Assembly (NCBI RefSeq): GCF_003018255.1
Contig: NZ_CP027440.1
Strand: one strand, 5' to 3'
DNA length: 64,000 nt
From: Escherichia coli
Lineage (GTDB): Bacteria; Pseudomonadota; Gammaproteobacteria; Enterobacterales; Enterobacteriaceae
Positions 10,248 through 19,070 of this stretch are shown here, in pieces (the first letter of the stretch is position 1; every line of letters starts with the position of its first letter). Both the position numbers and the translations under genes were made by a program. The notes under the pieces are model-generated. The model had not been told where the DNA came from. It saw only the letters and a program-made list of their open reading frames with translations, and made no database searches.

Positions 10248-10268
10248 TTTGTTGAAAAAGGATTGATA

Positions 10269-11414
10269 ATGAAAATTGTCATTGCGCCAGACTCGTTTAA
10301 AGAGAGTTTAAGTGCAGAAAAATGTTGTCAGGCAATTAAAGCCGGGTTTTCGACCATATTTCCCGATGCGCACTATATCTGTTTGCCGATAGCGGATGGC
10401 GGCGAAGGGACGGTGGATGCGATGGTCGCCGCGACGGGCGGCAACATCGTGACGCTTGAAGTCTGCGGGCCGATGGGCGAAACAGTGAATGCTTTTTATG
10501 GCCTTACCGGCGACGGGAAAACGGCGGTGATTGAGATGGCGGCGGCAAGCGGCCTGATGCTGGTCGCGCCTGAAAAGCGTAATCCGTTGCTGGCGTCAAG
10601 TTTTGGCACCGGAGAGCTGATTCGTCATGCGCTGGATAACGGCATTCGCCATATTATTCTCGGCATTGGCGGCAGTGCGACGGTCGACGGCGGTATGGGC
10701 ATGGCGCAGGCGCTCGGTGTGCGTTTCCTTGATGCTGACGGTCAGGTGCTGGCGGCTAACGGCGGCAATTTAGCGCGCGTGGCAAGCATTGAGATGGATG
10801 AATTCGATCCGCGTCTGGCGAACTGCCATATTGAAGTCGCATGTGATGTTGATAACCCGCTGGTAGGGGCACGCGGCGCGGCGGCGGTGTTTGGTCCGCA
10901 AAAAGGGGCAACGCCGGAAATGGTCGAAGAACTGGAACAGGGGCTGCAAAATTACGCCCGTGTTTTACAACAGCAAACTGAAATCAACGTCTGCCAGATG
11001 GCGGGCGGCGGCGCTGCGGGCGGTATGGGCATTGCGGCGGCGGTATTCCTCAATGCGGATATTAAACCGGGTATTGAGATTGTGTTGAATGCGGTCAATC
11101 TGGCGCAGGCGGTGCAGGGTGCAGCACTGGTGATCACCGGGGAAGGGCGCATCGACTCGCAAACGGCAGGCGGTAAAGCTCCGCTGGGCGTGGCGTCGGT
11201 GGCGAAGCAGTTTAATGTCCCGGTGATTGGGATTGCTGGCGTATTGGGTGATGGCGTGGAAGTGGTGCACCAGTACGGCATTGATGCGGTATTCAGCATT
11301 TTGCCACGTCTGGCACCTTTAGCCGAAGTGCTCGCCAGCGGTGAAACCAATCTCTTCAACAGTGCGCGAAATATTGCCTGCGCCATTAAAATAGGTCAGG
11401 GAATTAAAAACTGA
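10269..11414 (+). CDS. glxK: Glycerate kinase II
   Basis: ORF 10263-11414 trimmed to ATG 10269 ([14 protein letters not shown]); glycerate kinase family. Confidence 0.9.
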
Positions 11415-11429
11415 CTATTACCTTTAAAG

Positions 11430-11500
11430 CGGATGCGATTTATATCGCATCTTTTTTTACCTGAATTGACTACAAAAAAAGCCACGGAATAAACCGTGGC
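11430..11500. terminator. Convergent intrinsic terminators between glxK and allE
   Basis: Hairpin gatgcgat-ttat-atcgcatc followed by T7 (plus strand); second hairpin gccacgg-aataaa-ccgtggc preceded by A7 (terminator for the minus strand). Confidence 0.6.
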
Positions 11501-11542
11501 AAAATCCAACATAGCTAAAAATAATCAGGCGAGTGGTATGAC

Positions 11543-12268
11543 TTAAATCTCTACGTCGCGGTTGCAATCTTTCGAGTAAATATAGCTGAACGCTTCACCA
11601 CGCCCTACGCCATAACCAGCCTGTAAAGAATAAGCGCCCATAAAGATGTAATCGCCTTTTTTCACCGGGATCCAGTTATTGTCGAGGTTATAAACCCCCT
11701 GACCGGAAAGAATATAGGCACCGTGTTCCTGAACGTGGGTTTCGATATAACCGTGGCTGGCACCTGGTGCAAAAGAGAGGATATGCATGTTCATATCAAA
11801 ACCTAACTCTTTGGGCAGAAAATCCAGCAGAATAACATCGTCCATGCCTTCATAATGAATGCGTTCCAGTTCGCTGGCATTGCCAGAAACCAGCCACGGC
11901 GCATGACCTTCTACCGGAATATAGCGACGCTTATATAAAAAGATTTGGCTGTCTTCGGCCTGGGCGTTAACAAACGTCATTAAGGAGCCTGGCGGGCAAT
12001 AAAGATAGCCACCTTCACTTAAGGTAAATGTTTTCCCTTCGGCTTTGGCAGTGATATTTCCAGAGATCACATACAGGAACGTTTCAATGCCTTCGCCACC
12101 GAAGCCCTGTTGGTTGCCGCCGTTTTGATGCAGTGTGACCAGATAATCAACAAAAGAGGCACCCAGCTTTGGCGTGGAGAGGATTGTCGCGTCACAATTT
12201 TCAAAGCCCGGAATAATATTTTTTACCAGACCGTCTGGTGTTAACAGTGCGAAATTACCGTGTTTCAC
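11543..12268 (-). CDS. allE: (S)-ureidoglycine aminohydrolase (cupin)
   Basis: 241-aa ORF from GTG at 12268; the in-frame upstream extension reads KGYLNNVTGYREDLLANRAI preceded by TAA, i.e. no ATG at the position of the longer annotated form I recall. Confidence 0.8.
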   Translation of the reverse strand: MKHGNFALLTPDGLVKNIIPGFENCDATILSTPKLGASFVDYLVTLHQNGGNQQGFGGEGIETFLYVISGNITAKAEGKTFTLSEGGYLYCPPGSLMTFVNAQAEDSQIFLYKRRYIPVEGHAPWLVSGNASELERIHYEGMDDVILLDFLPKELGFDMNMHILSFAPGASHGYIETHVQEHGAYILSGQGVYNLDNNWIPVKKGDYIFMGAYSLQAGYGVGRGEAFSYIYSKDCNRDVEI

Positions 12269-12479: not shown

Positions 12480-13730
12480 GTGATGACCGGAATCAAAATT
12501 ATGAGCAGAGCACTTAACAAACTGAGTGACACACAGCTAAGGAAAATCAACGGCACACCCGCCCAAAAAACAGCCTTTCTTAATGACGGTGGAAACCTGA
12601 GCGTCAGGCATTCAACCAGCGGCCTTTTAACCTGGTATTTCACATACAGGGCCGGAACGGGAAGAGGGACACAACCTGAACGCGTTAAGCTGGGAAATTA
12701 TCCCGATCTGAGCCTGAAAGCAGCCAGGGAAAAAGCCGCACAGTGTCGCGCATGGCTGGCTGAGGGGAAAAATCCACGCTATGAACTGAATTACACCATG
12801 CAGGAAGCGTTAAAGCCTGCAACGGTTGGCGATGCGCTCACCTACTGGCTTGAGTCGTACGCAAAGGAAAAGCGCACAGATTACGAATCACTGAAAAGCC
12901 GGATCAATAAAAACATAATCATCAAAATTGGTGCTATGCCGCTGGATAAATGCGAGCTACGGCACTGGCTGGCCTGTTTTGATCAGGTGGCAAAGCGAAC
13001 ACCTGTTACTGCCGGATTCTTGCTACAGACATGCAAACAGGCGCTTAAATTCTGCCGTAGGCGGCGCTATGCAATCAGCAACGTTCTGGACGATCTGAAC
13101 GTGGCGGACGTTGGGAAAAAACCGGATATAAGCGAACGTGTCTTAAGCACCAAAGAACTGGGCGAGTTATTGCAGGCGCTGGATAAAAAAATATTTTCTC
13201 CTTACTACGTCGCGTTAATCCGCCTCCTGATTGTCTTCGGAGCCAGGACGGTAGAACTGAGGTTATCGGAGATCAGCGAGTGGGATTTTACCGAAATGCT
13301 ATGGACCGTTCCGAAGGAGCACAGCAAAACGAAGGTTGCAATATTCCGGCCCATACCGGAAGCGATCCTGCCGTTCGTCACGCGGCTGGTGGAGCAGAAC
13401 AGGCACACGGGCTTATTACTGGGGGAAGTGAAACAGGAGGCTAGCGTATCGCAGTACGGCAGATTAGCGCACAGGAGGCTAAAACACCTTCAATGGTCAT
13501 TGCATGACATCCGGCGCACCTTTACAACGATGCTGAATGATTTGGGCGTGGATCCTCACGTCGTGGAGCAGCTTACAGGTCATCAGATGCCAGGGATGCA
13601 ACGAGTCTATAACCACTCCCGTTATCTCGATGCGAAACGTGATGCGCTGGATATGTGGACGGAGCGGTTAGGGATACTGGCGGGAGCACATGAAAACGTA
13701 ACCACGCTACCAGTAACCAGAATAAAATAA
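12480..13730 (+). CDS. int: Tyrosine recombinase / integrase (P4-like)
   Basis: 416-aa ORF abutting attL; C-terminal catalytic region (HDIRRTF...RYLD) typical of phage integrases. Confidence 0.85.
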   Translation: MMTGIKIMSRALNKLSDTQLRKINGTPAQKTAFLNDGGNLSVRHSTSGLLTWYFTYRAGTGRGTQPERVKLGNYPDLSLKAAREKAAQCRAWLAEGKNPRYELNYTMQEALKPATVGDALTYWLESYAKEKRTDYESLKSRINKNIIIKIGAMPLDKCELRHWLACFDQVAKRTPVTAGFLLQTCKQALKFCRRRRYAISNVLDDLNVADVGKKPDISERVLSTKELGELLQALDKKIFSPYYVALIRLLIVFGARTVELRLSEISEWDFTEMLWTVPKEHSKTKVAIFRPIPEAILPFVTRLVEQNRHTGLLLGEVKQEASVSQYGRLAHRRLKHLQWSLHDIRRTFTTMLNDLGVDPHVVEQLTGHQMPGMQRVYNHSRYLDAKRDALDMWTERLGILAGAHENVTTLPVTRIK

Positions 13731-14094
13731 TTTTTTTCGTGTTTTTTCAGTATGCGCATACTGGATAAGTGCACAGATACAACGTGAAACAATGTGCAAC
13801 AACGTGACACAATCATGAACAAGAGGCCAAAAAGAATACAGATTTATAAGTTACTGATTTTTATTGCTCAACTGGTTTTTTATACATTAGCGAATTACGC
13901 GTTAAAGCGTGCGAAAAAAGGCATAAAACAAGATTTTATGCCTTTGTATTAACATGAATTTAAATGATTTTATCCTGATTATTCCTCTTTCTGTAAACCA
14001 TACGACATCAACATTTGCCATTCACCACACTAGCGGGAACAATACGACACAATAAGACACCTGATGACTCTTTAAGAAACGAAAGGGGGCAATA

Positions 14095-14283
14095 GTGTTA
14101 AGCACTGATCGGTTTATACGTGAAAAAGAATGCGAAAAGCTAACAGGCCTTAGCCGCTCATGCCGCTACCGCCTGGAAAAGGCCGGACAATTCCCATCAC
14201 GTCGTAAACTTGGCGGGCGTTCTGTTGGCTGGTCTTTATCTGAGGTTTTGGCCTGGAAGGATAGCTGCAAGGCAGTTCACTAA
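14095..14283 (+). CDS. alpA: AlpA-family transcriptional regulator / excisionase-like protein
   Basis: 62-aa ORF (GTG start) with AlpA-type HTH signature LTGLSRS..Y.L...G.FP...LG.RSVGW..SEV..W. Confidence 0.7.
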   Translation: MLSTDRFIREKECEKLTGLSRSCRYRLEKAGQFPSRRKLGGRSVGWSLSEVLAWKDSCKAVH

Positions 14284-14423
14284 AAAGACTGGCGGCACAC
14301 AGTCGCCACACATCCACTAATACAGAGATATAACTATGAAGATTGAATATGCGCCCGAACGTGGGCGGGGATTCGTTCGCCCTGGTGAAACTGAAAAACA
14401 ACAAAATTGGGGTTTTTCAGGCA

Positions 14424-14453
14424 TAAAAAAAGCGGCCCCGATATGGAGCCGCC
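14424..14453 (-). terminator. Putative intrinsic terminator for the leftward RHH transcript
   Basis: Minus-strand hairpin GCGGC-11 nt-GCCGC followed by U7. Confidence 0.4.
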
Positions 14454-14781
14454 TTTCTGAACAATTAACCTGCTGCGCCTTATGTGTATGTGATCCCAAA
14501 CATAAGCACGGGGATGATAGCCGCTATCAGGCTGGTGGGCAATTCCTGTTTTGTCCGTATTGCGCCGCCATTTTCGCTCGTTCAGAGCGCGAATATTTTT
14601 TTAGAAACTCATCAAGGACAAAAGCGCATGGTGCGAATCTTTCTGATTCATGCTCGAGCGCCATATTTTCGTGCTCTCTGTTCGTTTTTTGCGATGGTGT
14701 ATCGCTTGATTCTTTGTTGGTCATTGTGTGTACCTGTAAAGCAATGCGCCGTAGTACCTCACACCACGGCGCTGATAGTTT

Positions 14782-14913
14782 TTATCCTTTGGGGTCTATG
14801 CCGCGCCGCTTTAGTTCAGTGCGCCCCAACTCTTTAAGCCAGTTGGCTAGGCTTATGCCGTCGCTCTGTGCTTCTTTGTCGAATTGCTCTTTTAGCTCTG
14901 GAGAAATTCGCAT
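14782..14913 (-). CDS. Small ribbon-helix-helix (CopG/Arc-like) DNA-binding protein, candidate satellite repressor
   Basis: MRISPELKEQFDKEAQSDGISLANWLKELGRTEL... within ORF 14782-15054; transcribed divergently from the early operon; start codon uncertain, weak RBS. Confidence 0.4.
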   Translation of the reverse strand: MRISPELKEQFDKEAQSDGISLANWLKELGRTELKRRGIDPKG

Positions 14914-14966
14914 TCTGAATTGTGGGGATTGCCCGTCCCCTTTAGGGCTTTTATCGCGTTTGATTG

Positions 14967-15017
14967 TTGACAAGTGGCCACCTATTAAATTAGCCTTTCT
15001 ATTGTTAGGTGGCCACC
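14967..15017. promoter_or_regulatory. Candidate operator/promoter region: two GTGGCCAC palindromes flanking a TTGACA
   Basis: TTGACA at 14967-14972; palindromes GTGGCCAC (14974-14981) and GGTGGCCACC (15008-15017), 34 bp apart, between the divergent RHH gene and the rightward early genes. Confidence 0.45.
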
Positions 15018-15030
15018 TTAACACAAGAGC

Positions 15031-15077
15031 ACTTAAAAAAGCAAAGCCCCGCAAGTGCCATTACCACTCGCAGGGCT
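15031..15077 (-). terminator. Minus-strand intrinsic terminator; candidate 3' end of an antisense RNA
   Basis: On the minus-strand RNA a 13-bp stem (agcccugcgagug / cacuugcggggcu, two G-U pairs) with a 7-nt loop is followed by UUGCUUUUUU; on the plus strand the same stem has two C-A mismatches. Confidence 0.45.
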
Positions 15078-15106
15078 TCTAACCAACAACGTAAACGAGG
15101 AGCCGT

Positions 15107-15308
15107 TATGGTTGCCGTAAATCATATACCACACCTTGTACACACACAAACTGCCTTTGTGTGGCGTTTTCTGGCCCTGAGTGCCGGAGAATCTCAAATC
15201 ATCCACGTAACCGCCTGGACGGAACGCGAAGCGCGTAACCGTTGCCCGTCCGGTTGTGTTGCTGTATTTGCCGCCCGTATTCGTCAGGGGGAAACCTATG
15301 CACAATAA
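15107..15308 (+). CDS. Small hypothetical protein, possibly Icd-like
   Basis: MVAVNHIPHLVHTQTAFVWRFLALSAGESQIIHVTAWTEREARNRCPSGCVAVFAARIRQ; the Icd-like assignment is by recalled similarity only. Confidence 0.35.
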
Positions 15309-15528
15309 AACCACACCGGACGCAGCAGAAGAAGCAATGCAAATACTGATACGTGCGCTCGTTGATGTTACCCACATGGTGGAGATTATGGAGAGAAAAT
15401 CACAGTCGGAGCACGACAAAAGAAAACTTAAAACAATAAAAATAATTGCCAAAAACTCGCTGATAAAAGTTACAGACATCCTTAATGAGGACATTAAAAG
15501 AATAAGGGAGAAAATTTGTGATGCATAA
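15298..15528 (+). CDS. Hypothetical small protein (AT-rich cargo gene 1)
   Basis: 76 aa from ATG 15298 (MHNKTTPDAAEEAMQ...); overlaps the next gene by 11 bp; locally AT-rich. Confidence 0.35.
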   Translation: MHNKTTPDAAEEAMQILIRALVDVTHMVEIMERKSQSEHDKRKLKTIKIIAKNSLIKVTDILNEDIKRIREKICDA

Positions 15529-15748
15529 AATCCCTTTTGAAGTATTAATCCACTCTGAAAACGCATTAATTAAAGCACGCGAAATGAATGCGTTGTTAAT
15601 TAAATTAATTGAAGTGCCGGAAGGTGGTGAGGAATCAGGTGTATTAATGTTTGCAGCCATTCAGACATTACTATCGCCTGTTATTGATGAACTGGATAAG
15701 GCAATGGCAATTCACGAAAATAATAACGCGCCCCACACCGGAGAATAA
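15518..15748 (+). CDS. Hypothetical small protein (AT-rich cargo gene 2)
   Basis: 76 aa; start overlaps the previous ORF, suggesting translational coupling. Confidence 0.35.
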   Translation: MMHKIPFEVLIHSENALIKAREMNALLIKLIEVPEGGEESGVLMFAAIQTLLSPVIDELDKAMAIHENNNAPHTGE

Positions 15749-15753
15749 AAATA

Positions 15754-16053
15754 ATGAAACTTAAATATTCTGGCTTAACTGCCAGTGGCAAAACTCGCAC
15801 TAAATTCATGCGCGGTGATATTTACCGCGACCAGTACGGCGGCACGGTAATGATTAAGGGCGTGGAGGAACGGCGCGTAACTTACCGCCGTGAAGGTTAC
15901 GAATATGATTGCGTGATGCCCGTTTATCAGTTCGACCGTGATTTTTCTCTGGTGCAGGCAGCGCAACGCAGCAAGCCCACCAGCAGGGAGAAAGCACGCG
16001 CCAATATTCAGGAAATAAAAAAGATGCTTAACGTATTCAGGGGTAAAAAATGA
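15754..16053 (+). CDS. Hypothetical protein
   Basis: 99-aa ORF whose stop overlaps the primase start (ATGA). Confidence 0.4.
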   Translation: MKLKYSGLTASGKTRTKFMRGDIYRDQYGGTVMIKGVEERRVTYRREGYEYDCVMPVYQFDRDFSLVQAAQRSKPTSREKARANIQEIKKMLNVFRGKK

Positions 16054-17804
16054 AACTGGCACCGAACGTAAAACAGCAGTCACGCGGCATAAAACACAAA
16101 GAAACAGAAGTCATTATTTTTGCGGGTAGTGATGCCTGGTCACACGCAAAACAATGGCAGGAACATGACGCGCGTATGGCCGGAGATAATGAGCCTCCTG
16201 TGTGGCTTGGGGAGCAGCAGTTATCAGAACTGGATAAGCTGCAAATTGTGCCGGAAGGCAGAAAATCCGTGCGCATATTCAGGGCCGGATATCTTGCACC
16301 AGTAATGATAAAGGCGATTGGTCAAAAGCTGGCGGCGGCTGGTGTACAGGATGCAAATTTTTATCCTGAGGGTATGCACGGCAAGGAGGTGCAGAACTGG
16401 CGCGAATACCTGGCCCGTGAACGCCAGAATCTTTCTGATGGTCTGGTCATTGAGCTTCCGGTAAAGCAAAAGGCGCAACTTTCGCAGATGGCGGACAGTG
16501 AGCGCGCGCAGCTGCTTGCCGATCGCTTTGATGGCGTTTGCGTACATCCTGAAAGTGAAATTGTTCACGTATGGCGCGGCGGGGTATGGTGTCCGGTCAG
16601 CACAATGGAACTTAGCCGCGAAATGGTGGCGATCTATTCAGAGCACAGGGCCACTTTCAGCAAGCGCGTAATCAATAACGCCGTGGAAGCGTTAAAAGTT
16701 ATTGCCGAACCAATGGGCGAGCCGTCCGGCGATTTGCTGCCGTTCGCCAATGGTGCGCTTGACCTGAAAACGGGGGAATTTTCCCCGCACACGCCGGAGA
16801 ACTGGATCACCACGCACAACGGCATTGAGTACACGCCACCAGCACCAGGGGAGAATATCCGCGACAACGCGCCAAACTTTCATAAATGGCTTGAGCACGC
16901 AGCCGGAAAAGACCCGCGCAAGATGATGCGTATATGTGCCGCGCTGTACATGATTATGGCGAACCGGTACGACTGGCAGATGTTTATTGAGGCCACCGGA
17001 GACGGCGGGAGCGGTAAAAGTACATTCACACACATAGCCAGCCTTCTGGCAGGGAAACAGAACACGGTAAGCGCTGAAATGACATCGCTTGATGATGCTG
17101 GTGGACGTGCGCAGGTTGTCGGGAGTCGTCTTATCGTCCTGGCTGACCAGCCGAAATATACAGGCGAAGGAACGGGCATCAAGAAAATCACGGGCGGCGA
17201 CCCCGTGGAAATTAACCCGAAATATGAGAAGCGTTTTACGGCGGTAATCAGGGCGGTGGTGCTGGCTACCAACAATAACCCGATGATATTCACCGAACGG
17301 GCCGGAGGTGTGTCACGTCGTCGCGTAATTTTCCGTTTCGACAATATCGTCAGTGAGGCCGAAAAAGACAGGGAGCTACCGGAAAAGATTGCGGCTGAAA
17401 TCCCTGTCATTATCCGCCGATTGCTGGCGAACTTTACCGACCCTGAGAAGGCACGGGCTTTACTACTGGAACAGCGTGACGGTGATGAAGCTCTGGCAAT
17501 AAAGCAACAGACGGATCCGGTTATTGAGTTTTGCCAGTTCCTGAATTTTCTGGAGGAAGCACGCGGCCTGATGATGGGCGGCGGTGGCGATTCAGTGAAG
17601 TACACGACCAGGAACAGCCTTTACCGCGTCTATCTGGCGTTTATGGCATACGCAGGCAGGAGCAAACCGCTAAACGTGGCTGAGTTCAGCAAGGCCATGA
17701 AGCCAGCGGCGAAAGTTTACGGGCATGAATATATTACGCGAAAAGTTAAGGGAGTAACGCAGACCAACGCAATTACAACAGACGATTGCGACGCGTTTTT
17801 ATAA
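16050..17804 (+). CDS. Replication protein: P4-family primase / D5-like SF3 helicase
   Basis: 584 aa with Walker A GDGGSGKST; domain architecture of satellite pri-rep proteins; iterons immediately downstream. Confidence 0.8.
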   Translation: MKLAPNVKQQSRGIKHKETEVIIFAGSDAWSHAKQWQEHDARMAGDNEPPVWLGEQQLSELDKLQIVPEGRKSVRIFRAGYLAPVMIKAIGQKLAAAGVQDANFYPEGMHGKEVQNWREYLARERQNLSDGLVIELPVKQKAQLSQMADSERAQLLADRFDGVCVHPESEIVHVWRGGVWCPVSTMELSREMVAIYSEHRATFSKRVINNAVEALKVIAEPMGEPSGDLLPFANGALDLKTGEFSPHTPENWITTHNGIEYTPPAPGENIRDNAPNFHKWLEHAAGKDPRKMMRICAALYMIMANRYDWQMFIEATGDGGSGKSTFTHIASLLAGKQNTVSAEMTSLDDAGGRAQVVGSRLIVLADQPKYTGEGTGIKKITGGDPVEINPKYEKRFTAVIRAVVLATNNNPMIFTERAGGVSRRRVIFRFDNIVSEAEKDRELPEKIAAEIPVIIRRLLANFTDPEKARALLLEQRDGDEALAIKQQTDPVIEFCQFLNFLEEARGLMMGGGGDSVKYTTRNSLYRVYLAFMAYAGRSKPLNVAEFSKAMKPAAKVYGHEYITRKVKGVTQTNAITTDDCDAFL

Positions 17805-18811: not shown

Positions 18812-18821
18812 GGGGGTGACG

Positions 18822-19070
18822 ATGGTACATGACCGCATAGCGGAGGAACTCGAGGCAAAAGGCTTTTACCGGAGGGCGTCGGCGCGATGGGGTGAAGTCA
18901 TGCAACTGGTGGAGACAGACAAGGAACGGCATCAGGTTACGATGCGACGGCTGGAATGTTCCAGGAAGGCACAGAGGCCACCGGAGCCGCCAACGGAGAA
19001 CTACGCAGACCTGAGAAATGCAGTAAATCGCACTTACGCAGACATGGGGCTGAGCAAATTAGCAGAGTAG
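18822..19070 (+). CDS. PerC-family transcriptional regulator (putative)
   Basis: MVHDRIAEELEAKGFYRRASARWGEVM... matches the PerC-type AEELE.KG.WRRA..RW motif; start chosen at ATG 18822. Confidence 0.45.
   Translation: MVHDRIAEELEAKGFYRRASARWGEVMQLVETDKERHQVTMRRLECSRKAQRPPEPPTENYADLRNAVNRTYADMGLSKLAE

Follow-up and report, generated by a model that had tools for sequence, protein, structure and literature searches.

A predicted repressor and antisense RNA switch ahead of the replication operon of an Escherichia coli PICI

Is the stretch of small genes between alpA and the primase gene of this E. coli element a store of accessory genes, or does it control the replication operon? A sequence-only reading of this DNA had described it as "early-region cargo", a divergent unit in which a leftward ribbon-helix-helix (RHH) gene faces two palindromes and four small rightward genes. 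That a divergent unit lies between alpA and the primase gene was confirmed (Table 1). The cargo label did not suit the unit as a whole, since the RHH gene, the operators, the promoter, a hairpin and icd appear to form a conserved switch heading the replication operon. We conclude, with a probability of about 0.6, that the whole region is the switch and promoter-proximal early (replication) operon of a capsid-forming PICI, with a repressor layer and an antisense layer. The window referred to below is the whole 64-kb stretch of DNA analysed.

The element and its leftward operon

The element encodes an integrase, AlpA, a primase, a major head protein (5.5e-88) and a head maturation protease (1.9e-67); portal- and terminase-sized ORFs, matched by size alone, come after the head genes. 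Judged from the integrase, AlpA, primase, head and protease matches, the element is a capsid-forming PICI. AlpA is the helper-dependent activator of Gram-negative PICIs, the induction of which was found to be AlpA-dependent without a repressor having to be invoked (PMC6092414). DNA matching some part of the region occurs in 1291 of 5426 complete E. coli genomes, about a quarter. The RHH/operator/icd module is 97.4% identical to that of E. coli O157 Sp7/OI-51 (EcCIEDL933). With its hairpin, the module was found in both EcCICFT073 and EcCIEDL933, and the layout of the switch is common to these two model PICIs. DUF4222 and primase genes were present throughout the intervals compared. The interval between alpA and the RHH gene, nearly empty in the window, holds large variable genes in relatives, coding for Bro-N, DUF2971, 178-aa and 449-aa proteins. 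PADLOC-DB 2.0 returned no defence component and only chance-level matches (Cas8g, 0.003, for the 65-aa protein; mad3, 0.0026, for the primase).

The leftward gene had been recognized as an RHH gene with limits at 14782-14913. The RHH identity stood, but these limits, which give a 43-aa product, cut off the DNA-reading β strand PQFRMRI. In relatives the protein starts as MST(V)IKRDK, from the codon that corresponds to TTG 14973, and we therefore assign 63 residues to the protein. Residues 11-58 align with residues 2-49 of P22 Arc, pairing PQFRMRI with PQFNLRW and DGISLANW with NGMSVNSY, with PQF(N/R)xR shared. The protein matched an Arc-like PHROG (E = 1.9e-6) and Pfam HicB (E = 6.9e-4), and the top PDB match of its profile was P22 Mnt, the PDB E-values being marginal (0.2 and 0.44). 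The succession of β strand, helix A, G-x-(S/T/N) turn and helix B over about 45 residues that characterizes ribbon-helix-helix domains was found in it. The gene is left unannotated in O157.

The last gene of the leftward operon codes for a 65-aa protein and is kept in most relatives; homologues of the protein were found in E. coli only, none of them with a Pfam domain. The hairpin between the two genes is possibly an attenuator. The intrinsic terminator of the operon was missed by the scan because its loop is 11 nt long, and the hairpin abutting the alpA stop codon would keep leftward transcripts from running antisense into alpA. The 65-aa gene, the three minus-strand terminators, a 248-aa plus-strand ORF and the identity of RgdR (see below) had gone unmentioned earlier. 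For a leftward promoter of the RHH class found in the window there was no convincing placement, only -10 candidates of the nnTAAT type.

Table 1. Features of the region, with strand and the basis of each assignment
Feature	Position	Strand	Basis or remarks
alpA	14095..14283	+	phrog_2790, "excisionase and transcriptional regulator", E = 1.7e-17
Terminator-like hairpin and T-run	14287..14309	-	Hairpin scan; abuts alpA stop codon
248-codon open frame, antisense to leftward operon	14336..15082	+	ECs_1576/WP_001304194 (Sakai, EDL933 annotation)
Intrinsic terminator of RHH operon	14425..14460	-	GGCGGC..GCCGC then T7; read from sequence
65-aa protein, last gene of leftward operon	14527..14724	-	phrog_21027, E = 2.3e-12; conserved motif EHESERFAPCAF
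12-bp hairpin between RHH and 65-aa genes	14746..14772	-	Hairpin scan
RHH (Arc/Mnt-like) repressor, 63 aa	14782..14973	-	Profile matches and relatives' starts; TTG start 14973
P_R, predicted promoter	14967..14996	+	-35 TTGACA (14967-14972), 18-nt spacer, -10 TAGCCT (14991-14996); fixed position among relatives
Candidate operator O1, AAGTGGCCACCT	14972..14983		In P_R spacer, over RHH ribosome-binding site and start codon
Candidate operator O2, AGGTGGCCACCT	15007..15018		Perfect 12-bp palindrome; about +3 to +15 of P_R
Predicted cis-antisense RNA, about 80 nt	15033..15119	-	Fold, covariation, terminator, strand asymmetry
Icd-like protein, annotated host cell-division inhibitor, 66 aa	15108..15308	+	NF033153; phrog_29966, phrog_1743
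Putative antisense RNA promoter	15121..15149	-	TTGTGT-N17-TATGAT, within icd codons 5-14; motif position among relatives
76-aa helical-hairpin protein, family F2	15298..15528	+	Variable member of small-gene array
75-aa helical-hairpin protein, family F0	15521..15748	+	76 aa from GTG 15518; just upstream of rgdR
RgdR family protein (DUF4222), 99 aa	15754..16053	+	PF13973, E = 6.8e-24; phrog_285; RGD at residues 20-22
P4-family primase/replicase	16050..17804	+	phrog_864, E = 7e-175; TIGR01613

The switch and the operon that it would control

Just two copies of GTGGCCAC are present in the 64-kb window (14974-14981 and 15009-15016), a count that alone is not above chance (at least two sites in 32 of 100 shuffles). 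Their starts are separated by 35 bp, they lie within a 17-nt direct repeat (TTGACAAGTGGCCACCT / TTGTTAGGTGGCCACCT), and they also make an 11-nt perfect inverted repeat. The palindromes had been noted before as lying around a TTGACA; they are present, but the TTGACA adjoins the first of them on its left and is not between the two. It serves as the -35 of the predicted rightward promoter P_R, and O1 and O2 bracket the -10. The P_R motif, TTGA(C/A)N, 16-18 nt and TAnnnT, recurred in 45 of 50 distinct contexts at a constant distance (-122 to -152) from the icd ATG, and the intervening sequence is unrelated among variants. In each variant one repeat adjoins the -35 and the other comes after the -10, and the repeat changes with the RHH variant; for example, PQFRMRI is paired with AGGTGGCCACCT, PPFHMRI with AGGTGTACACCT, PTFQIRI with TACGTACGTA and PPYQMRL with ATGGTAATTACCAT. 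EcCICFT073 has the same operator layout, with GTGGGCCACACC present twice. Such covariation is expected for swappable repressor-operator modules, and the operators are presumptive. In the window the -10 of P_R is weak, and the promoter was not called by a consensus scan. We propose that RHH dimers at O1 and O2 would repress P_R and autoregulate the RHH gene. This repression would keep the icd-like gene, the genes for the small helical proteins, rgdR and the primase gene silent in the integrated state, and helper-dependent expression of alpA would lead to induction of the operon.

Over the start of the icd-like gene we predict an antisense RNA of about 80 nt, which is new. Stem-loop 1 (15113-15081) carries the anti-Shine-Dalgarno sequence CUCCU in its loop. 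Stem-loop 2 (15079-15043), with 15 pairs, forms the terminator together with a U-run (15042-15033), and the T-run is on the minus strand only. Homology among 80 loci stops at about 15036-15037, the end of the terminator. The fold has a z-score of -4.2. Across 23 variants, which show double changes at six pairs, 97.9% of the cells pair on the minus strand versus 82% on the plus strand, the difference lying in 83 G-U cells; the mean folding energies are -33.9 and -24.8 kcal/mol, respectively. The observed covariation score was reached by none of 500 shuffles, controls that correct only partly for relatedness, many variants being recombinants of few hairpin types. A Klebsiella copy has the same fold, with its own anti-Shine-Dalgarno sequence in the loop. 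The putative promoter motif was equally placed in all 45 contexts with a correctly placed icd start, and TAGACT stands at this spacing in the Klebsiella copy; the -35 in the window (TTGTGT) is weak, and the putative promoter was not called by a consensus scan. An Rfam cmscan of 13700-16400 at E <= 1 gave only chance matches (BSnc120, rnk_pseudo and CrcZ) and no match to the C4 antisense RNA (RF01695). We rejected rnk_pseudo as the identity of the RNA, its 23.8 bits against a gathering score of 55 being driven by the terminator. The minus-strand RNA would start in the first icd codons and end at the strong intrinsic terminator, covering the icd-like Shine-Dalgarno sequence and start codon with the anti-Shine-Dalgarno sequence displayed in a loop. 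Leaky transcripts would thereby be kept from being translated into the potentially toxic Icd-like protein, and, because the downstream genes overlap one another, translation of these would be lowered too.

All four small rightward genes were confirmed. The first, formerly called possibly Icd-like, scored 64.8 bits with NF033153 against a cutoff of 25, and its start is at 15108, not at 15107. The next two had been described as 76-aa genes overlapping by 11 bp; the pair stood, but the second encodes 75 residues and overlaps by 8 nt from ATG 15521, which is PGAP's start in relatives (GTG 15518 gives 76 aa and the 11-nt overlap). The AT-rich stretch around them was borne out, with a GC content of 34-39% at 15280-15760 versus about 50% in the flanks. 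The earlier statement that no function could be assigned holds for this pair, in structure as in Pfam, NCBIfam and PADLOC, none of which gave a match, but not for the 99-aa protein, which is RgdR. Both proteins of the pair were modelled by structure prediction as helical hairpins. Foldseek found nothing in the PDB below E = 0.2 for either model; the matches were only generic coiled hairpins, designed proteins and encapsulated-ferritin-like helices, and Rip1 of phage HK446 was a weak match (probability 0.23). A word-indexed homologue search with the 76-, 75- and 65-aa proteins gave only close relatives in Escherichia, Shigella and E. albertii, all of them listed as "hypothetical" and lacking a Pfam domain. 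BLASTP of one protein of the pair against the other gave nothing, and hhalign among families F0-F4 showed no relationship (all probabilities below 1%). The intervals between icd and rgdR contain one to five genes of at least five unrelated families, with F0 among them in 51 of 61 distinct intervals. On this distribution, F0 is a near-core family and F2 one of several interchangeable small genes.

The 99-aa gene had been described as coupled to the primase gene, and indeed overlaps its start by ATGA. RgdR/DUF4222 is a regulator of LEE type III secretion and motility that is found in all analysed E. coli PICIs (PMC3378721, PMC6092414). As a core protein of PICIs, RgdR is known from published work to affect host gene expression.

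Other readings of the region

Might the leftward pair be a type II toxin-antitoxin system, with an RHH antitoxin and a 65-aa toxin, acting in island stabilisation or abortive infection? The gene order, RHH first and a small gene second, the palindromic operators at the promoter and the weak Pfam HicB match of the RHH domain would agree with this, but the 65-aa protein has no toxin-family match in NCBIfam, PADLOC or Pfam, a 57-nt gap with the 12-bp hairpin separates the two genes, relatives have two further genes between them, and in every variant the operators are on the core of the rightward promoter. Lacking both a toxin family and tight coupling, the pair was rejected as a member of this class, and we regard the idea as very improbable. 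The long plus-strand ORF raises a different challenge, namely that it is the real gene, fused to Icd in some variants, and the RHH frame a by-product. Its frame is open far beyond chance (the probability of staying open is about 1e-4) and is open in most mosaic variants, it is fused in frame to icd in loci L033, L072 and L073 and in the Klebsiella copy, and the Icd family phrog_29966, of 188 aa, has an N-terminal extension. The dN/dS ratios do not separate the two frames because third codon positions coincide; at 0.26 for the RHH frame and 0.23 for the ORF they were uninformative and were rejected as arbiter. The part of the ORF 5' to the overlap has 9, 5 and 11 variable columns by codon position, too few differences to identify it as coding. 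The frames were instead compared by a sense-versus-shadow codon model and by AT skew. In the overlaps, the log-likelihood ratios were +9.1 (RHH gene) and +10.5 (65-aa gene) for the minus strand against -13.9 and -4.3 for the plus frame, the codon usage of which is like that of a shadow frame there, and AT skew was negative in this stretch only. The minus-strand product is similar to Arc/Mnt over its full length, and its variants change together with the operators. The plus-strand product, in which Cys, Ser and Phe abound, matches no PHROG; the phase of the ORF relative to icd is not conserved, and PGAP calls the minus-strand genes in CFT073 and strain 2013C-4282. That the ORF is the real gene thus seems improbable, although both frames could be used and the two explanations could both hold. 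The openness of the plus frame across the whole RHH operon is unaccounted for by the switch model. We also entertain, as a rather speculative view, that induction may bypass the repressor without inactivating it, with alpA readthrough translated along an antisense-embedded "spacer ORF" that would be the induction conduit of Gram-negative PICIs. Strong terminators across the RHH operon are on the minus strand only, and among relatives the plus frame, which occurs in all three phases, either stops no more than 28 nt from the icd start or continues into it. Helper-activated alpA transcripts would then run rightward through the RHH operon, convergent with it, and a frame of about 250 codons would be translated, its sequence being unimportant and its openness selected. 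Coupled ribosomes would protect the readthrough RNA from Rho, silence RHH synthesis via collision or antisense pairing, and strip antisense RNA or mRNA structure off the icd ribosome-binding site, turning the replication operon on. If true, this would account for the failure to find any repressor-antirepressor interaction in Gram-negative PICIs.

The antisense layer of the switch has its own competitor, which we consider unlikely: the hairpin may be a mere insulating terminator, stopping spurious leftward transcription from the AT-rich genes ahead of the switch, or a 5' stabiliser of the icd mRNA, with no dedicated antisense RNA. The poor -35 of the proposed promoter, and another minus-strand promoter-like site far upstream (15791-15764), would fit this, as would the overlap of the promoter with a conserved protein motif, because of which its conservation could be due to coding. 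However, stem-loop 1, outside the terminator, also covaries and needs G-U pairs available on the minus strand only, and its loop carries an anti-Shine-Dalgarno sequence in both E. coli and Klebsiella despite their differing sequences. In Klebsiella, where the codon context differs, the T, the A and the final T of the -10 are likewise kept at unchanged spacing, and any minus-strand transcript ending there, whatever its start, would be antisense to the icd ribosome-binding site. On the rightward side, the small genes, chiefly the AT-rich pair, could be accessory cargo aimed at the helper phage, competing phages or host defences and not at regulation or replication. The variable content of the icd-rgdR intervals speaks for this, as do the low GC content, which suggests exchange with other elements, the confinement of the families to Escherichia and Shigella, and the finding that transposon insertions in the 61-aa, 63-aa and icd-like genes of ECOR61 suppress cell death triggered by a phage gene. 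Yet those ECOR61 small genes belong to families (F4 and F3) other than the window's, PADLOC gave no matches, structure prediction yields only generic helical hairpins, and the genes are translationally linked inside the replication operon. Moreover, F0 is near-universal and always next to rgdR, which fits a core role. Of the small rightward genes, only F2 has the pattern of a variable accessory gene, and the cargo reading, while it deserves some weight, is not the one we favour.

Should the RHH protein repress the replication operon, and should the antisense RNA guard the icd-like gene, existing strains can be used to test the silence of the satellite and its override by AlpA. Swappable repressor-operator pairs would define incompatibility types of co-resident satellites, analogous to the immunity groups of phages. 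The switch also ties the phage-triggered cell death of ECOR61 to a defined regulatory architecture and places RgdR, a virulence regulator of EHEC, in a satellite operon predicted to be controlled by a repressor and an RNA, which bears on the timing of RgdR expression.

Relation to known systems

RgdR as a regulator, the phenotype of the ECOR61 operon and the requirement for AlpA are already known. A literature search on the locus tags ECs1576-78 and Z1837-39, OI-51 sRNAs and YlcI/YnfO found nothing on the features described here, and one on ribbon-helix-helix proteins in EcCICFT073 found nothing. Like RgdR (ECs1581) of O157:H7 OI-51/CP-933C (Flockhart et al., 2012; PMC3378721), the window's protein is a DUF4222 protein of 99 aa with RGD at residues 20-22, Q27 and K35, and its gene sits like Sakai ECs_1581, directly upstream of, and overlapping, the PICI primase gene. 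Of the six positions at which the active O157 protein and the inactive ED1a variant differ, three have the ED1a residue in the window's protein (A10, R45 and D61), which may or may not be an active regulator.

The ECOR61 operon was described as a "prophage-encoded superinfection exclusion system" (Silas et al., bioRxiv 10.1101/2023.04.06.535777), with phage orf24 as the trigger and the Icd-like protein as the likely effector of phage-triggered cell death. It encodes an Icd-like protein, 61-, 63- and 73-aa proteins, DUF4222 and a primase. Each of these genes has its counterpart in our locus L093, with which the sizes of 366, 186 and 192 nt listed in the supplement of that paper agree exactly. 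The window's operon is of the same type, with an Icd-like protein, small proteins, DUF4222 and primase, but has F2 and F0 where ECOR61 has F4, F3 and F0; the RHH gene, the operators and the antisense RNA are absent from the description in that paper. The earlier expectation of defence cargo is therefore upheld insofar as a defence-like phenotype is published for a sister operon, but the unit is not mainly cargo.

As in type I toxin-antitoxin systems, the start of a potentially toxic small protein lies under a short, structured, terminator-ended predicted antisense RNA; the Icd-like protein, however, is not a hydrophobic membrane peptide, and its gene heads a long operon under a predicted protein repressor. 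In the immI region of P1/P7, C4 is followed by icd and then ant. There, too, the operon opens with an Icd-family gene, an RNA regulator apparently acts at the translation start of this gene, and the downstream genes are translationally linked to it. C4, in contrast, is processed from the strand of its own target, whereas the window's RNA is predicted to be a true cis-antisense RNA, and the window has neither an ant gene nor an Rfam C4 match.

The immI region of P22 combines the RHH repressors Mnt and Arc, the overlapping promoters Pant and Pmnt, and sar, an antisense RNA over the ribosome-binding site of ant. The window differs in having one RHH gene instead of two, no Ant, KilAC or Bro match among its four rightward proteins (a Bro-N gene is found elsewhere in the element in some relatives), a satellite replication operon as the regulated operon, and operator sequences unrelated to those of P22. 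It resembles immI in that an Arc/Mnt-like RHH gene, for which Arc and Mnt are the best PDB matches, is divergent from the operon it faces, in that candidate operators lie on the promoter core, and in that the ribosome-binding site of the first regulated gene would pair with a predicted short antisense RNA that ends at a terminator of its own.

The ribbon-helix-helix gene and the rightward promoter

The sequence-only reading had placed a leftward gene for a ribbon-helix-helix (RHH) protein at 14782-14913. The gene exists but its limits, which gave 43 aa, were wrong: the product has 63 aa and aligns to residues 2-49 of P22 Arc (PQFRMRI versus PQFNLRW), and the 43-aa version would begin MRISPEL, i.e., downstream of the beta strand. 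In relatives, the codon corresponding to TTG 14973 is where six sequence variants of the protein begin, with MST or MSI. A 90-aa ORF from TTG 15054 was rejected: it is broken in close relatives, and its start lies inside a terminator hairpin. The leftward operon contains one further gene and ends in a terminator (see the table); just before this terminator, at 14391-14420, a 14-nt inverted repeat (CTGAAAAACAACAA/TTGGGGTTTTTCAG) was seen in a conserved stretch after alpA.

Two palindromes had also been proposed as operators. The two GTGGCCAC sites are present, but their count alone is not above chance. They are the only two in the 64 kb (at 14974 and 15009, 35 bp apart), lie inside a 17-nt direct repeat and together form an 11-nt perfect inverted repeat. 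We compared 80 loci collected from IMG/VR via the Icd-like protein, and further loci from E. coli genomes. In the relatives examined, a leftward RHH gene is always found upstream of icd, the Icd-like gene that heads the rightward operon, and these RHH genes fall into two classes, that of the window, with six variants or more, and one that PGAP calls YlcI/YnfO family. In 45 of 50 distinct contexts, a TTGA(C/A)N, 16-18 nt, TAnnnT arrangement keeps a constant spacing to the icd ATG, and the sequence around and between the hexamers is unrelated among variants. In each variant, one repeat copy abuts the -35 hexamer inside the spacer and the second follows the -10 hexamer, and the sequence of the repeat changes from variant to variant together with residues of the RHH beta strand. 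This layout recurs in the model element EcCICFT073, where the repeat is GTGGGCCACACC, present twice.

This layout is, at the sequence level, the pattern expected of exchangeable repressor-operator pairs on a rightward promoter core. It suggests, with a probability of roughly three in four, that the RHH protein represses the putative rightward promoter by binding there. Autoregulation is plausible as well, since the putative operator O1 covers the ribosome-binding site and start codon of the RHH gene; the position of the leftward promoter is putative.

Features of the element and of its switch region
Feature	Coordinates	Strand	Remarks
Integrase	12480-13730		416 aa
alpA	14095-14283		
Terminator ending the leftward operon	14425-14460	-	strong
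Second leftward gene	14527-14724	-	65 aa; phrog_21027
Rightward promoter (putative)	-35 14967-14972; -10 14991-14996	+	
Operator O1 (putative)	14972-14983		
Operator O2 (putative)	15007-15018		
P4-family primase	16050-17804		SSB next in order
PerC-like gene, HK97-type major head protein, head maturation protease			downstream of primase/SSB

A predicted antisense RNA over the icd start

The loci cease to be homologous to one another at about 15036-15037; to the right of this breakpoint, a hairpin, the leader and icd move as a single cassette. The hairpin is a terminator of 15 pairs (15079-15043) with a T-run on the minus strand only, and on that strand no gene lies upstream of it. The minus strand from 15130 to 15030 folds with -38.3 kcal/mol (z = -4.2), and the consensus from 23 distinct variants consists of two stem-loops in which 97.9% of cells pair. 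Six of its pairs still pair after changes on both sides, the observed covariation score was reached by none of 500 shuffles, and control structures shifted by 1-3 columns gave only 36-49% pairing. On the plus strand, where 83 cells turn from G-U pairs into C-A mismatches, only 82% of cells pair, and the minus strand folds better in every variant (mean of -33.9 versus -24.8 kcal/mol). Stem-loop 1 displays CUCCU in its loop, which is complementary to the Shine-Dalgarno sequence of icd. A putative promoter, TTGTGT-N17-TATG(A/C)T, lies within icd codons 5-14, at the same place in all 45 contexts with a correctly placed icd start.

A copy from the record "Klebsiella phage P12620-1", in which the adjacent module is only 67% identical, has the same two stem-loops. 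It ends in a U7 tail, and its loop holds an anti-Shine-Dalgarno sequence of its own, CCUCA. A -10-like TAGACT keeps the spacing although the codons around it differ, and the folding z-scores are -3.9 for the minus strand and -1.5 for the plus strand. Rfam holds no family that matches the RNA. With some reservation, we favor the view that the minus-strand structure is a cis-antisense RNA of roughly 80 nt, predicted to lie over the icd translation start.

At 15143-15163 (+), inside icd, a CACACAAA..TTTGTGTG hairpin followed by GCGTTTTCTG is nearly invariant in relatives. The putative antisense -35 and the codons for the protein motif HTQTAFVWRF overlap this hairpin, which may act as a plus-strand attenuator or simply reflect coding constraint. 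The Klebsiella locus (L096; PQ569648.1, 93861-100093) belongs to a 106-kb record deposited as a phage and has an alpA-like gene, a minus-strand RHH ORF unannotated in the record, an Icd-like domain and the satellite-switch layout. Part of this record may be of satellite or host origin.

An open frame antisense to the RHH operon

In Sakai and EDL933 neither leftward gene is annotated, and the only gene annotated here is a 247-aa plus-strand ORF, which corresponds to 14336-15082 (+; 248 codons) in the window. Where it overlaps the leftward genes, this ORF has the codon usage of a shadow frame, and the minus strand that of the sense strand; AT skew agrees, and no PHROG family matches the ORF. One plus frame in the window is nonetheless stop-free over 253 codons. 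When the synonymous codons of the two minus-strand genes were resampled and the non-coding parts shuffled, 0.01% of the trials were stop-free, and 0.1% were when the non-coding parts alone were shuffled. Most mosaic variants have one plus frame with 0-2 stops, the other two having 10-40; this openness spans intervals of 484-1426 nt with unrelated RHH modules, and the frame is likewise open in the Klebsiella copy. Its end varies with the variant (at -28, -11 or -8, or in frame into icd). The strong terminators of the alpA-icd interval are all on the minus strand, and published fusions showed the ORF after alpA to be expressed in an AlpA-dependent manner. Speculatively, read-through transcripts driven by AlpA could be translated all the way through the repressor operon to the start of icd, an explanation we consider unlikely. 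The antisense open frame is statistically robust yet unexplained.

The rightward genes, the element and related switches

The four small rightward genes are all present, with starts at 15108, 15298, 15521 (or GTG 15518) and 15754, the last gene overlapping the primase start by ATGA. The AT-rich stretch was also borne out (GC down to 34-39% at 15280-15760), and the Icd-like protein passes the NCBIfam cutoff. That no function could be assigned to any of the four does not hold for the 99-aa protein, which belongs to the characterized RgdR family: it matches DUF4222 (PF13973, E = 6.8e-24), has RGD at residues 20-22, Q27 and K35, and is encoded in the same position as Sakai ECs_1581. ECs1581 is RgdR, which activates LEE1 and type III secretion, represses motility, and binds DNA weakly and non-specifically (PMC3378721). 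At three of the six positions separating the active O157 from the inactive ED1a variant, the window's RgdR has the ED1a residue (A10, R45, D61), so that it may be active or inactive. Neither the RgdR nor the Icd-like gene is unusual within its family. Regulatory and core functions make up most of the unit, rather than cargo, and one of the four proteins taken as unknown is already characterized.

Between icd and rgdR, the loci compared have 226-1347 nt with 1-5 small genes. These belong to at least five families, among which no relationship was detected. Family F0, which includes the window's 75-aa protein, occurs in 51 of 61 distinct intervals and always adjoins rgdR; the 76-aa protein belongs to F2, one of the families that alternate in the array. 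Both proteins are found in Escherichia and Shigella only, lack Pfam domains and are predicted as two-helix hairpins (pLDDT 88 and 80), models for which no informative structural neighbor was found. At four loci (L047, L056, L066 and L073), ORFs of 148-184 aa in this interval have an N-terminus of F2 type (MHNKTTPDAA..) followed by a protein of F1 type (MRDDRFNSLKQEF..); thus, array genes are sometimes fused. The alpA-RHH interval of relatives contains large variable genes: at loci L085-L094 (about 1400-2900 in locus coordinates), these encode Bro-N (192 aa), DUF2971 (273 aa) and, on the minus strand, 178-aa and 449-aa proteins. In this family, the interval seems to be where accessory genes are really accommodated; in the window it is almost empty, with only the 65-aa gene.

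A defense role had been suggested for the small genes. According to Silas et al., a locus of strain ECOR61 kills the cell upon expression of the phage gene orf24; transposon suppressors fell in an Icd-like gene (366 nt) and in neighbors of 186 and 192 nt, and six linked genes including the primase are required, the Icd-like protein being the likely effector. The genes of locus L093 match these sizes exactly: an Icd-like gene, with a product called at 121 aa, is followed by genes for 61, 63, 73, 99 (DUF4222) and 583 aa. The ECOR61 system is therefore a sister variant of the window's operon. At the level of the whole operon this partly supports the suggestion, but the support does not extend specifically to the window's two proteins.

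The gene set of integrase, alpA, primase and head genes is that of a capsid-forming PICI, a type of phage satellite; portal- and terminase-sized ORFs, identified by size alone, follow the head maturation protease. An 84-aa protein at 18816-19070 (+), at the position of the PerC-family gene in EcCICFT073, matches "transcriptional activator" PHROGs (phrog_994, 1.7e-38; phrog_10396, 1.3e-15). A weak Rfam hit to the Brucella sRNA BSnc120 in the AT-rich int-alpA gap (13881-13962, +; 23.8 bits, gathering score 114) most likely reflects a hairpin that matches by chance. Over 14900-15320, the window shares 97.4% identity with Sp7, a prophage of O157:H7 Sakai, and with the corresponding locus in EDL933, O-island 51/CP-933C, which is the published prototype of a capsid-forming PICI, EcCIEDL933. 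The whole 1770-bp region was found in one piece in no complete E. coli genome, the best matches among these being mosaics of 2-4 pieces. The integrase, which adjoins 383-aa and 241-aa ORFs (flanks 10263-12268), and the insertion site are unlike the roxA-adjacent site of EcCIEDL933 and EcCICFT073; hence, the same switch module travels with different integration modules.

The locus provides candidates for a repressor and for a small RNA in the two model Gram-negative PICIs, the former bearing on the question of whether such elements have a repressor at all; the antisense open frame, so far without explanation, adds to its value. In P22 immI, Arc/Mnt-type RHH repressors act on overlapping promoters and the sar antisense RNA lies over a ribosome-binding site; P1 immI has an RNA regulator, then icd. 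The locus resembles the former in its predicted RHH repressor at a promoter and predicted antisense RNA over a ribosome-binding site, and the latter in having a predicted RNA regulator ahead of icd. Both comparisons fail in a defining feature, because the locus has no antirepressor gene; the C4 RNA model finds no match there. We treat it as a variant of the immI-type switch, operating in a satellite.
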